A stretch of 64,000 nt of DNA from Methanobacteriota archaeon. GTDB lineage: Archaea > Methanobacteriota > Methanobacteria > Methanobacteriales > Methanobacteriaceae. The notes beneath the pieces are model-generated. The model made no database searches and was not told the origin of the DNA. It worked only from the letters and a program-made list of their open reading frames with translations. The translations under genes and the position numbers were made by a program. The stretch is taken from the NCBI GenBank assembly GCA_963787255.1, contig CAWBCJ010000029.1, positions 288,001-352,000 on the forward strand, read 5' to 3'. Below, one piece after another: positions 60,416 to 64,000 of this stretch; the first letter of the stretch is position 1; every line of letters begins with the position of its first letter.

Positions 60416-60859
60416 TTATGCTGGTATTAAATGTGTTGCGCCTCTGTATACATGTTCTTTACCATGTACTGAGCAATAATCAGCATCACATCCCCCTTTA
60501 GCCATGTTACAGTATAACATCCCTTCAGGACATCCGCCACCTCTTGTAAAGCTTAGTGTTCCATATTTATGGCATTGAGGACAATAATTTACCCATGATT
60601 TACTATGAGATGCACAATTAGTGAACATACTACATGAACATTCACCTCTTGTAGATATAATTCCTCTTTTTTGAACTTTGGATTTAGCATTTACTTTTTG
60701 TTCAGATGGAAGTTCTGCGGTTGCCATAACAAGTGAAGACTGGGCAAAAGTAGATTCATCTTTTGATACATCCTGGCTATTTATGGTTCCTGAAAAAAAT
60801 AGACCCCCTATAGCCATGCAAAGCACCATTATAGATATATATAGAGATCTTCGCTTAAT
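60416..60859 (-). CDS. Secreted Cys/His-rich protein with a probable ATT start
   Basis: GGAGGAG RBS lies 5 nt before ATT (60859), giving (M)KRRSLYISIMVLCMAIGGLFF. C-terminal CSC, CPQC, C..EG..YC and CDADYC..HG.EH motifs. Confidence 0.75.
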   Translation of the reverse strand: MKRRSLYISIMVLCMAIGGLFFSGTINSQDVSKDESTFAQSSLVMATAELPSEQKVNAKSKVQKRGIISTRGECSCSMFTNCASHSKSWVNYCPQCHKYGTLSFTRGGGCPEGMLYCNMAKGGCDADYCSVHGKEHVYRGATHLIPA

Positions 60860-61340: not shown

Positions 61341-62465
61341 TTGATGAATCTAGAAAAACTCAGAGCTCTTGGGGATTCTGCAAAATATGATCTATGTAAC
61401 TATGTAAGTGGTAACATTGAAACTTACGCCGAAGGTAAAATACCCGGAGTTTATAACAGTACTTCACCAAGTGGGCACTGCATGCCAATATTTAAAGTAC
61501 TTATGACTAATAAATGCTCTAATGACTGCAAATACTGTATGAACAACACTAAAAATAAATTAGAGCGTTATGAATATGAGCCAGAGGAACTTTCAAGATT
61601 ATTTTTAGATTATTATAATAAAAGGTACGTTGAAGGTTTATTTTTAAGTTCAGGAATTAGAAATGAAATCGATCCCTCCATGGAAAAAGAGATCGAAGTT
61701 GCCAGAATATTAAGAGATTATGGATATGACGGCTATATCCACCTTAAAATAATTCCAGGAACGTCTTTTGACCTTATAAAAAGAGCAATGAAACTTGCAG
61801 ATAGGGTAAGTATCAATATAGAGTCTGCAACTCCTGATGGATTAGAGGAAATTACCACAACGAAAAACTTTAAAATCGATATTTTAAGGCGTATGAAATG
61901 GATTAACAATCTTTCTAAAAAAGACGCAACTCTAGCTCCTTCAGGCCAGACCACCCAATTCATTGTTGGGGCGACTGACGAAACTGATGAGGAATTTCTT
62001 AAAAGAACAAAGTGGCTTCACGATAAATTTGAAATCAGAAGAAGTTATTTCAGCGCATTTAATCCCCTGAAAGATACTCCTCTTGAAAATCGTGATGAAC
62101 CTCATCCTATGAGAACTGCAAGACTTTATCAGGCTGATTTTCTGCTTAATTCATATAAGTTCCGTCTTGATGAACTTATTTTTGATGAAAATGGAAATAT
62201 TGAAACAGAAATAGATCCAAAATATTCCTTTGCCATGAATAACCTAGATTTATTCCCGATAGATGTGAACGAATCATCATTTAATGAACTAATAAGGGTT
62301 CCAGGGATTGGAAAGATTTCAGCTAAGCGAATCATAACTCTCAGAAAACGTGGGATGAAAATCAGTGGATTAGAAGAACTAAAAAATTTAGGCGTTGCTG
62401 TAAAGCGTGCTGAACCTTTTATTAAGCTTAATAACTCTTATCAAAGTACTTTAGTAGGACTTTAA
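61341..62465 (+). CDS. Radical SAM protein with helix-hairpin-helix (putative DNA modification/repair, TIGR03916-like)
   Basis: AKYDLC, CSNDCKYC, EGLFLSSG, YIHLK, RLYQADFLL and VPGIGKISAKRI. Confidence 0.88.
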   Translation: MMNLEKLRALGDSAKYDLCNYVSGNIETYAEGKIPGVYNSTSPSGHCMPIFKVLMTNKCSNDCKYCMNNTKNKLERYEYEPEELSRLFLDYYNKRYVEGLFLSSGIRNEIDPSMEKEIEVARILRDYGYDGYIHLKIIPGTSFDLIKRAMKLADRVSINIESATPDGLEEITTTKNFKIDILRRMKWINNLSKKDATLAPSGQTTQFIVGATDETDEEFLKRTKWLHDKFEIRRSYFSAFNPLKDTPLENRDEPHPMRTARLYQADFLLNSYKFRLDELIFDENGNIETEIDPKYSFAMNNLDLFPIDVNESSFNELIRVPGIGKISAKRIITLRKRGMKISGLEELKNLGVAVKRAEPFIKLNNSYQSTLVGL

Positions 62466-62483
62466 TTCTATTTTTATACATAT

Positions 62484-62637
62484 AAGTTATATCTTCTTAG
62501 TTTTAAGTTAAAATTTATAACTGATATGTTATAACTTCTTAGTTTTAAGTTACAAGTTATATGTTAAAATTCATAACTAATATGTTATAACTAATAACTT
62601 CTAAGTAATTACTTATAAGTTATAAAGAATAAGTTAA
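62484..62637. repeat. Array of 22 contiguous 7-bp units, consensus AA(G/C)TTAT, candidate centromere-like parC/parS site
   Basis: Parses without gaps as aagttat atcttct tagtttt aagttaa aatttat aactgat atgttat aacttct tagtttt aagttac aagttat atgttaa aattcat aactaat atgttat aactaat aacttct aagtaat tacttat aagttat aaagaat aagttaa. G or C occupies position 3 in 19 of 22 units. Confidence 0.85.
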
Positions 62638-62703
62638 AATGATCTTCAAATCTTGCCATAAAACATATTTGTATTTTTTGTGGCATGCAAAAATCTATAA
62701 TTT

Positions 62704-62731
62704 TTAACCCTCAACACATTTTGAGGGTTAA
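62704..62731. terminator. Hairpin downstream of the parA operon
   Basis: TTAACCCTCAA-cacatt-TTGAGGGTTAA perfect 11-bp inverted repeat. Confidence 0.65.
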
Positions 62732-62758
62732 CATTTTTTTTTAATCATTAAAAAAAAA

Positions 62759-63115
62759 TTATATACGTTCTTCAAACAACTCCCAAATTTCAGGATATTT
62801 TTCTTTCACTGCTTTTTCAATTAAAAGAGACGCTTCACTGCTGATGCTGAATTCAGGCTCTGTTTTCCTTAAATATCTCAAAACAGCAGCCGATTTTGCA
62901 GACCAAAGTGAAATACGTGGATTTTTCTTTATTTCAGCTAAAACTCCATCAATAACTTCTTCATTTAATTCCAAAACATTATCTACAGTTAATTTTTCAT
63001 CATGCTCTTCATCGGGAATGACTGTTTTAGGATCATCTTCTTTAACGTATTTTTTACTAATTAAAGCATCGAGCCCCCGTCCAAGCGCGCCACCCTGTTT
63101 TTTATCGGTGCTCAT
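62759..63115 (-). CDS. ParA partner protein with ParB-like LGRGL peptide and predicted ribbon-helix-helix domain
   Basis: GGALGRGLDALI at the N-terminus and C-terminal RISLWS / AKSAAVLRYLRK / SISSEASLLIEKAV strand-helix-helix pattern. Overlaps the parA stop by 14 nt. Confidence 0.75.
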   Translation of the reverse strand: MSTDKKQGGALGRGLDALISKKYVKEDDPKTVIPDEEHDEKLTVDNVLELNEEVIDGVLAEIKKNPRISLWSAKSAAVLRYLRKTEPEFSISSEASLLIEKAVKEKYPEIWELFEERI

Positions 63116-63887
63116 TATTTCCCTCCATTTCTAATATCTCATCAGCAAGATCCATATAAGCAACAGAACCTTTACACTCTTCATCATAGATGATACATGG
63201 TTTTGCATGGCTTGGAGCTTCTGCAAGCTTAACATTACGAGGTATAGTTGTTTTAAAGATATTTTCTTTCTCTCCAAAGTATTCAATAACATTGCTGTAT
63301 ACTTCTCTTCCAAGCCTTGTTCTGGAGTCATAAAGAGTAAGAAGAATCCCTTTAATTTTTGAAGGACTGTCAAGACGGTTTGAGACGAGTTCCATAGCTT
63401 CTATAAGATCTGCCATCCCTTCAAGAGCATAAAATTCTGCTTGAATTGGGATAATAACACTATCTGAAGCTACCAACGAATTTATGGTTAGCACGCCGAG
63501 AGATGGAGGCACATCAATAAAAATATAATCGTAAGAATCTTTAATAGTTTCTAATTTTTCTTTTAATATGGAATGAAATCCTATTTCCCCACTTAATTCA
63601 ATTTCAGCACCGCTTAAAGATATATTACTTGGAACGATGCCCAATCTATCAATTCCCGTGGGCATTATAGCTTCCGAAATAGAGTTTTTTCCAGTTAAAG
63701 TTGTATATATAGTCTTTTCAAGTGTGTTTTTCTCTATTCCAAAGCTTGTAGTGGCATTGCCCTGAGGATCAATGTCTACAAGTAAAATATTTCTGTTATT
63801 AATGGCCAGTGCAGTTGAAAGATTAACTGCAGAAGTGGTTTTACCGCAGCCTCCCTTCTGATTTAATATTGCAATTATTTCACCCAT
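63102..63887 (-). CDS. parA: ParA/Soj family partition ATPase
   Basis: Deviant Walker A NQKGGCGKTT, DIDPQGNAT, IDVPPSLG, PIQAEFYALEG and IPRNVKLAEAPS. Confidence 0.95.
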   Translation of the reverse strand: MGEIIAILNQKGGCGKTTSAVNLSTALAINNRNILLVDIDPQGNATTSFGIEKNTLEKTIYTTLTGKNSISEAIMPTGIDRLGIVPSNISLSGAEIELSGEIGFHSILKEKLETIKDSYDYIFIDVPPSLGVLTINSLVASDSVIIPIQAEFYALEGMADLIEAMELVSNRLDSPSKIKGILLTLYDSRTRLGREVYSNVIEYFGEKENIFKTTIPRNVKLAEAPSHAKPCIIYDEECKGSVAYMDLADEILEMEGNNEHR

Positions 63888-63896
63888 TTTGAGCGC

Positions 63897-63943
63897 CCTC
63901 CAATTTACTTCTAAATTGTAAGTTATAAGTTATAATATTTAAA
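63897..63943 (-). promoter_or_regulatory. parA promoter with in-register heptads between TATA box and RBS
   Basis: Minus-strand TTTAAATA at 63936-63943 and GGAGG RBS at 63897-63901. Heptads tacttct aaattgt aagttat aagttat at 63906-63933 match the downstream array. Confidence 0.7.
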
Positions 63944-64000
63944 ATTTGTTAAGGTTATTACAGCCAAAGACCTCTTATTTGATTCCAAATTTAGGTAATG

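Follow-up and report, generated by a model that had tools for sequence, protein, structure and literature searches.

A segAB operon with candidate heptad centromere sites and a ParB-like SegB tail in Methanobacteriales

The segAB operon

Close to the end of a 64-kb stretch of contig CAWBCJ010000029.1, which was analysed as a whole and is called the window below, two genes on the reverse strand encode a ParA/Soj-type ATPase and a protein of 118 residues, and the start of the second gene overlaps the stop of the first by 14 nt. The two genes are almost certainly segA and segB, and the locus as a whole is likely to comprise a segAB operon for chromosome partition and its cis-acting sites, in a Methanobacterium-like archaeon. 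These sites are runs of a 7-bp unit, TAA-S-TTA (S standing for G or C), one of them beyond the end of segB and the other in the segA promoter (Table 1). A preliminary description of this DNA had pointed to the overlapping gene pair, to a 154-bp heptad array downstream of it and to the same heptads in the promoter of the parA gene, and all three are borne out by our analysis. SegAB was reportedly first described in a PNAS paper of 2012.

Table 1. Features of the segAB locus (positions are those of the window)
Feature	Position	Strand	Basis
segA, 261-residue ParA/Soj-type ATPase with deviant Walker A motif	63102..63887	-	open reading frame list, Pfam, search of the Protein Data Bank (PDB)
segB, 118-residue putative centromere-binding adaptor	62759..63115	-	open reading frame list, phmmer against PDB
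segB codons 11-19, L-G-R-G-L-D-A-L-I, ParB-type ParA-binding motif	63059..63085	-	orthologue alignment, comparison with published work
segB codons 51-115, conserved C-terminal DNA-binding domain with K-N-P-R-I-S-L-W-S signature	62771..62965	-	alignment to SegB-delta33 (7DV2)
Downstream heptad array, 22 in-register TAA-G/C-TTA units (= TTATAA-S), candidate segS centromere	62483..62636	.	
Promoter heptads, four units, 18-45 nt upstream of the segA ATG, candidate SegB operator/segS	63905..63932	.	
TATA-box-like TTTAAATA (coding strand), directly upstream of the promoter heptads	63936..63943	-	inference, read from sequence
Putative ribosome-binding site GGAGGG, 8 nt before the segA ATG	63896..63901	-	inference, read from sequence
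16-nt inverted repeat with flanking T/A runs, terminator-like (inference)	62699..62736	.	repeat search

The adaptor is a homologue of Sulfolobus SegB

Searched against the PDB with phmmer, the 118-residue protein matched solved SegB over query residues 15-115 (7DUV, chain 7DUV_A, E = 1.4e-11) and a truncated SegB over query residues 52-115 (7DV2, E = 9.2e-09). It also bears the C-terminal SegB signature, published as K/R-D/N-P-K/R-I-G/T-V/L-W-S (10.1101/2025.04.15.649018), in the form K64-N65-P66-R67-I68-S69-L70-W71-S72, which departs from the pattern at a single position by having S where the pattern has G/T. Because the protein matches solved SegB and bears this signature, we regard the pair as a segAB operon. 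In public records the close SegB homologues from Methanobacterium, Methanosphaera and Methanobacteriaceae are labelled “hypothetical protein”, and the protein itself was assigned to no Pfam or NCBIfam family (with Pfam opened to E ≤ 1, a single chance row, Rap1a, appeared). The same scans found neither the CTPase domain ParB_N nor a helix-turn-helix (HTH) domain, so that SegB is not a member of the ParB family, in agreement with the preliminary description. There were no omega or ParG chains among its PDB matches at E ≤ 10, and no Pfam family for either.

The preliminary description had gone further, presenting the module as an undescribed partition system and Sulfolobus SegAB as an analogy. 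The anatomy it proposed holds, with a ParA, a ParB-type tail, a part of ribbon-helix-helix (RHH) type and two arrays. The kind of system is, however, not undescribed: the adaptor is related to Sulfolobus SegB by sequence homology and not by analogy only, and SegB beside ParA in Methanobacteriales had already been listed bioinformatically.

In SegB of Sulfolobus solfataricus an unstructured N-terminus is joined to an RHH domain, and the residues K52, W56 and K75 are reported to touch bases (Yen et al. 2021, PMC8682754). These map to R67, W71 and S90 of the present protein, all three of which are invariant among its orthologues; an Arg at the position of K52 is given for euryarchaea in the same paper. 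The correspondence of K52 and W56 to R67 and W71, combined with the replacement of K75 by S90, fits a DNA specificity that would be related to that of the S. solfataricus protein but shifted from it. Across 29 SegB orthologues the residues N65, P66, R67, I68, W71 and S72 are invariant, as is much of the C-terminal domain, and the linker that connects this domain to the tail varies in sequence and length.

A ParB-type motif in the SegB tail

The tail residues L11, R13, L15, L18 and I19 carry the same residue numbers as their counterparts in the motif of Myxococcus xanthus ParB. According to Schnabel et al. (10.1101/2025.03.14.642875), L11, L15, L18 and I19 are each essential in that protein, and R13 contacts a second surface. 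Orthologous loci were compared in a set of the 30 best loci, each of roughly 3.3 kb, one of which (L026) ends at a contig end, leaving 29 with DNA upstream. The sequence LG[KR]GLDALI is present in 29 of the 30 loci, the exception (L029) being LGMGLEALI, and L11, G12, G14, L15, A17, L18 and I19 are invariant in the 29-row alignment of SegB. The central residue is K at 17 loci, R at 12 and M at one, a mixture of K and R that mirrors the roughly 50% Lys reported for bacterial ParB (10.1101/2025.03.14.642875).

SegA resembles bacterial Soj

SegA matches the Pfam families AAA_31 (2.6e-63) and CbiA (1e-23), and its translation contains the deviant Walker A motif NQKGGCGKTT, which fits KGGxGK[ST]. 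Among solved structures it comes closest to ParA/Soj proteins of bacterial chromosomes, namely M. xanthus ParA (8RAY, recognised as such via a preprint; 8.1e-67, 228.6 bits), Helicobacter pylori Soj (6IUB; 7.7e-60, 205.8 bits) and Thermus thermophilus Soj (1WCV; 3.7e-53, 183.9 bits). S. solfataricus SegA (7DUT) follows at 2.1e-19 and aligns over residues 4-169 only; with 73.4 bits for this protein, the methanogen SegA is far nearer to bacterial Soj/ParA than to its Sulfolobales namesake.

The residues lining the ParB-peptide pocket of M. xanthus ParA, whose chain numbering was verified at the D60A position, can be followed into SegA: V116 corresponds to I96, L150 to L130, L152 to V132, L155 to I135, L187 to L167 and L192 to L172. 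Three of these six positions are identical and three are conservative, and L130, L167 and L172 are invariant across 29 SegAs. The DNA-binding R238 of M. xanthus ParA aligns with K220. SegA is Soj-like and has kept the hydrophobic pocket for a ParB peptide.

Heptads on both sides of the operon

Tandem Repeats Finder (TRF) delineated a repeat of period 7 at 62481-62636 (22.3 copies, score 88) and another before segA at 63919-63935 (2.4 copies, 100% matches). The first resolves into 22 consecutive heptads that run from 62483 in a single register; 20 of them fit TAASTTA at 5 or more of the 7 positions, and five are exact copies of TAAGTTA. G occupies the centre of 12 heptads, C that of seven and another base that of three, and because TAAGTTA and TAACTTA are reverse complements, the unit is present in both orientations. 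The four promoter units read TTACTTC, TAAATTG, TAAGTTA and TAAGTTA, two of them thus being exact.

At a lag of 7 the identity of the array with itself is 0.57, compared with 0.36 ± 0.035 in shuffled sequence (0 of 2000 shuffles reached 0.57); it is 0.59-0.65 at lags of 14, 21 and 28 and 0.25-0.37 at the remaining lags. When all 175-bp stretches of the window are ranked by their lag-7 score, the array stands at the top with 0.583 and the next stretch scores 0.429. The word TAAGTTA as such is not enriched over the window, which holds 24 copies against 19.35 ± 3.77 expected (15 of 100 shuffles reached 24), and seven of the 24 copies fall inside the two heptad sites. The unusual feature of the heptads is their clustering and phase, not the number of heptamers. 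Chance low-complexity DNA as their source is excluded by the shuffles, by simulated genomes and by a reversed-pattern control, the last two of which are given below.

Conservation of operon and arrays

A SegB match was found in 146 of 151 genomes, covering 27 of 27 genera of the order, and a SegB profile matched 284 of 301 genomes of a wider sample (215 of 223 high-quality genomes). In all 29 loci with upstream DNA, segA lies directly upstream of segB. The preliminary description had proposed a survey of orthologous loci for co-conserved heptads, and this we carried out in two ways. With TRF, counting arrays whose units are cyclic permutations of TTATAAC or TTATAAG, 25 of 29 loci have an array upstream of segA, 15 of 30 have one downstream of segB and 29 of 30 have one in either place; elsewhere in the loci there is a single one. 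A stricter score scan gave 22 of 29, 17 of 30 and 26 of 30, respectively, again with one cluster elsewhere. The preliminary description had named a lack of arrays beside orthologous operons as grounds for refuting its proposal, and the survey does not refute it.

Heptad clusters and the orc1/cdc6 region

A scan of the 2.47-Mb assembly for in-phase heptad runs returned only three clusters: the downstream array, the segA promoter and a distal cluster at C29:372668-372730, outside the window and 21 kb from the segAB sites. Three genomes simulated with an order-3 Markov model gave 0, 1 and 0 clusters. None of the three real clusters is more than about 35 kb from the main orc1/cdc6 gene. The distal one has a class-IV aminotransferase gene on one side and a BacA/UppP gene on the other, and the spacer that separates these two genes carries a cluster in three further genomes as well (G088, G005 and G013), which makes four of the six genomes examined and spans two families. 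A second distal position, beside a TOBE-domain gene and a MurJ-like gene, is common to G005 and G024. The distance from segAB to the best-scoring orc1/cdc6 gene is 23-44 kb in all six genomes, with the aminotransferase/UppP site between them.

We further searched five complete genomes of five genera with a four-heptad pattern, allowing at most 3 mismatches. The forward strands gave 4, 2, 7, 9 and 4 matches, which form 2-3 clusters per genome, and the reversed pattern, used as a control, gave no match in any of the five. In four of the five, the operon has a cluster either in the segA promoter or immediately beyond segB, with further clusters 16-25 kb to either side.

The constancy of this arrangement bears on the origin of the module. 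A small RHH adaptor with heptads recalls the type Ib systems of plasmids, and within one genus there are genomes with 2-4 SegB-like matches, so that one could think of a plasmid- or provirus-derived type Ib module that has integrated into the chromosome. Such a derivation is highly improbable for a module that is present in every genus sampled at the frequencies given above, that keeps its position relative to orc1/cdc6 in six of six genomes and that is flanked by housekeeping genes.

Surroundings of the operon

The downstream array occupies the spacer between segB and a convergent radical S-adenosylmethionine (SAM) gene (61341-62465, +). The arms of the terminator-like inverted repeat (62699-62714 and 62721-62736, 88% complementary) lie between the segB stop and the array. 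The second neighbour of note is a threonyl-tRNA-synthetase-like open reading frame (ORF), judged from its translation. The product of the radical-SAM gene, which combines the radical-SAM part with a helix-hairpin-helix, scores 342.7 bits against TIGR03916, a family of putative DNA modification/repair radical SAM proteins, and so falls just below the cut-off of 343.5. Just past the end of the window, upstream of segA and divergent from it, is a gene for a 73-residue stand-alone PG_binding_1 protein (1e-18). At 60416-60829 (-) there is an ORF of 137 codons for a cysteine-rich protein with several CxxC-like pairs and an N-terminal hydrophobic segment, which has no obvious link to segAB. Known RNAs at 62300-64000 were ruled out, as an Rfam scan gave two chance rows only.

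Elsewhere in the genome there are three matches to ParB_N (PF02195), at C17:1903-2100, C17:7856-8056 and C1:9989-10192, none of them near segAB. Two are on one 14.8-kb contig, and the matches may belong to a mobile element, nucleases or methylases. In five genomes of one genus, g10 (G036, G068, G083, G086 and G106), the main segB is accompanied by extra divergent SegB-like ORFs of 108-132 residues (34-40% identity, E about 1e-15; for example G106:C1:2355370-2355615), which may be paralogous or element-borne partition adaptors.

Relation to other partition systems

The SegAB family has already been described in print, as have its general build and its occurrence in Methanobacteriales. Barilla (2016, PMC5120986) noted segAB cassettes in some Euryarchaea, including Methanothermobacter thermautotrophicus, and in that review the spread of SegAB in Euryarchaea and the nature of archaeal centromeres were listed as open questions. 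More recently, 22 euryarchaeal SegB homologues were reported, Methanobacteriales included, and a transfer from Sulfolobaceae was proposed (10.1101/2025.04.15.649018). In the literature searched we found no experimental work on SegAB of methanogens, as the preliminary description had supposed in knowing of no characterised counterpart in Methanobacteriales, and among the matches listed in a full-text search for “LGRGL” nothing concerned partition. We also found no published account, within a search that did not extend to figures and preprint supplements, of the heptad unit, the arrays, the low number of these and their origin-proximal, partly syntenic layout in methanogens, or of a SegB tail that equals the ParB motif residue by residue and is paired with a pocket-keeping SegA of Soj type.

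With SegAB of Sulfolobales the locus shares the homology and signature of SegB, the order of a segB that follows and overlaps segA, and a SegB that joins a disordered N-terminus to a DNA-binding domain, which is RHH in Sulfolobales and, by homology, probably of RHH type in the methanogen. In S. solfataricus this N-terminus is needed, and removal of residues 1-21 is reported to abolish the stimulation of SegA (PMC8682754). The candidate sites are comparable as well, lying just upstream of segA, with a 7-bp build and a G/C-centred core that contains A-S-T. For S. solfataricus SegB, chromatin immunoprecipitation with sequencing yielded the motif TCTAGA-S-TCTAGA with the core AGA-S-TCT (Kabli et al. 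2025, PMC12284271), and segS of Sulfolobus acidocaldarius is described as three 7-bp repeats directly upstream of segA (Charles-Orszag et al., 10.1101/2025.04.15.649018); its middle unit agrees with TAAGTTA at 5 of 7 positions.

Apart from SegA itself and the Ser in place of K75, there are three differences. The methanogen tail has the full L-G-R/K-G-L-x-x-L-I, whereas the L-G-R/K-G half is missing in S. solfataricus, where the chain begins three residues before L-D-F-L-L. The unit is TAA-S-TTA in the methanogens and AGA-S-TCT in S. solfataricus. The methanogen sites are concentrated in 2-4 clusters and form long tandem arrays with as many as 22 units, compared with about 32-46 dispersed 13-bp sites in Sulfolobales (PMC12284271). 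For Thermococcus the same paper reports no SegB sites near segAB with the Sulfolobus motif and anticipates that the motif of Euryarchaeota will differ; “Methano” is absent from its main text, and neither “Methano” nor “TTATAA” occurs in three of its supplement files.

With bacterial ParABS (Soj/Spo0J, M. xanthus) the locus has in common a ParA of the same subfamily (8.1e-67) and sites that are origin-proximal and clustered. In contrast to ParABS, the locus lacks a ParB_N CTPase domain, an HTH and a parS palindrome, and the DNA anchor is small and of RHH type. It follows from such an anchor that the CTP-gated clamp closure by which two ParB tails are juxtaposed (10.1101/2025.03.14.642875) cannot apply here.

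In type Ib plasmid systems, such as delta/omega of pSM19035 and ParF/ParG of TP228, ParA is activated, as it would be here, by a small RHH protein that binds the centromere and has a flexible N-terminal tail. Omega recognises tandem heptads, in both orientations, at its centromere and at its own promoter. A flexible N-terminal tail is described for ParG of TP228 (PMC8682754). Unlike these systems, to which neither Pfam nor the PDB search gave a sequence match, the methanogen locus is chromosomal, order-wide and origin-proximal, and its tail motif is of the chromosomal ParB type, whereas the plasmid partners are described as being without the typical chromosomal motif (10.1101/2025.03.14.642875). 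In its proposed mode of operation the adaptor resembles the SegB, ParB and omega/ParG systems alike.

A model for SegAB action and its rivals

How might these parts work together? The analysis established what the genes are, their homologies and conserved motifs, the statistics of the repeats, their rarity in the genome and their synteny, and it is from these results that we infer all steps of binding and activity. SegB would dimerise via its C-terminal RHH-type domain and bind successive 7-bp TAA-G/C-TTA units in either orientation. SegB dimers are placed on successive heptads because the heptads are built like published SegB sites and two of the three base-contact residues have invariant counterparts; that SegB binds the heptads is very probable. 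Arrays coated with SegB would display many disordered tails (L11-G-R13-G-L15-D-A-L18-I19), and the tail peptide would stimulate ATP hydrolysis by SegA, as a result of which the origin-proximal region would be separated along a gradient or structure of SegA. SegA would in this manner be activated by a peptide-pocket contact of ParB type, delivered from RHH-coated heptad arrays near the origin. At the promoter heptads, which lie between the TATA-like box and the ribosome-binding site and start codon, SegB would autoregulate segAB. A true centromere role of the arrays is the answer we favour, with less assurance than for the binding itself. In its fullest form the model describes a natural chimera, in which a Soj ParA is driven by a ParB peptide on an archaeal SegB RHH domain that polymerises on TTATAA-S, with a multi-site centromere zone near the origin. 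This we put forward tentatively, as a possibility that falls a little short of an even chance.

A number of observations weigh against this model, the first group of which concerns the protein. One of the three base-contacting residues of S. solfataricus SegB, K75, is a Ser (S90) here. An AlphaFold2 model of the SegB monomer, built from the 29-row alignment, has a mean pLDDT (predicted local distance difference test) of 64 and consists of helices only, with no beta strand at R67-W71, and a Foldseek search of the PDB with this low-confidence model gave no match at E ≤ 0.001. The RHH fold of SegB is accordingly a putative assignment, made from sequence homology to 7DV2. A profile of the tail motif met residues 6-15 of T. 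thermophilus Spo0J at a non-significant E = 0.85, with a transposase ranked above it (E = 0.4). The first 30 residues of SegB gave 0 matches at E ≤ 10 with phmmer against the PDB, and for residues 1-40, compared with longer proteins of a large protein database, none of 159 candidates reached E ≤ 1. The lack of matches to the tail is explained by the shortness of the motif, which is too short for such searches. For the complex of a SegA dimer, two ATP, two Mg and SegB 1-40 the outcome of structure prediction was “no answer”, with a score of 0.01 and a mark of 0.32, and is evidence in neither direction.

A second group concerns the sites. There is no heptad cluster in 4 of the 30 loci at the strict threshold, or in 1 of 30 with TRF. 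The description of the sites as origin-proximal relies on a replication origin beside orc1/cdc6, which we take to be the case in this order. In G029, a complete genome that belongs to another genus, the strongest three clusters (C1:1310246-1310280, 1340814-1340862 and 2303813-2303854) are more than 250 kb away from segAB, which is at 2,051,103. A second orc1/cdc6 paralogue (1,290,455-1,291,504) is 19 and 49 kb away from two of these clusters, and this layout may represent a second origin-linked set of sites or a relocated centromere.

The same genome, whose strongest clusters are far from segAB and nearer to the second paralogue, could also be read to mean that a different factor binds the arrays, or that they are structural AT-rich DNA (associated with the origin, with a nucleoid protein or with bending) that merely lies beside segAB. 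The arrays have 84% A+T in a genome of 33% G+C, which would suit this reading, as would the fact that the binding of heptads by SegB is deduced. We consider it distinctly unlikely, since the arrays accompany the operon at all but one of the 30 loci with a single array elsewhere, two of the only three clusters in the present genome bracket segAB, the unit has the build of published SegB sites with their 7-bp spacing and A-S-T core on G/C, and R67 and W71 do not vary, just as the unit itself does not.

The distal cluster of the present genome also counts against a purely segregational role, as the uppP start follows it at a distance of 115-177 nt, so that it could equally be a transcriptional operator. 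The heptads might then be operators and nothing else, with SegB acting as an RHH repressor of segAB and perhaps of a small regulon that includes uppP. RHH partition proteins commonly autoregulate, the promoter heptads are placed between the TATA-like box and the segA start, and the cluster upstream of the BacA/UppP gene recurs in four genomes. The largest array, however, with its 22 units, is located between convergent genes, past the terminator-like hairpin, where there is no promoter, and downstream arrays recur in 15 to 17 of the 30 loci. The distal sites speak against this reading too, even if the one in the present genome is placed upstream of uppP. Moreover, SegB is paired with a ParA motor and has a conserved ParA-binding motif in its tail, and the clusters concentrate near orc1/cdc6. 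An exclusive operator role is therefore improbable, although less so than a foreign binding factor or structural DNA.

Implications

Chromosome segregation in archaea beyond Sulfolobales is largely unknown, and the locus supplies a conserved candidate site, (TTATAA-S)n, together with a genome-wide map of candidate sites, in 2-4 clusters that mostly lie within about 60 kb of orc1/cdc6. It also supplies a hypothesis, at the level of single residues, for how SegB switches on SegA. If the chimera of a Soj ParA, a ParB peptide and an archaeal SegB domain is real, the heptads would be the first sequence-defined candidate centromere for methanogens, and the tails of SegB and ParB would be homologous.

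Such homology would have consequences for the history of the system. S. solfataricus SegA and its activating peptide are described as departing from the mode in which a ParB tail enters a ParA pocket (10.1101/2025.03.14.642875), and a SegA of Soj type that keeps the pocket and meets a ParB-type tail sits uneasily with a Sulfolobaceae origin of euryarchaeal segAB. If the chimera is real, the full motif and the Soj-like SegA of the methanogens may instead be the older state and the Sulfolobales version derived, a view that contradicts the published proposal of transfer. The locus thus bears on whether the contact between ParB tail and ParA pocket predates the split between ParB-based and RHH-based adaptors.

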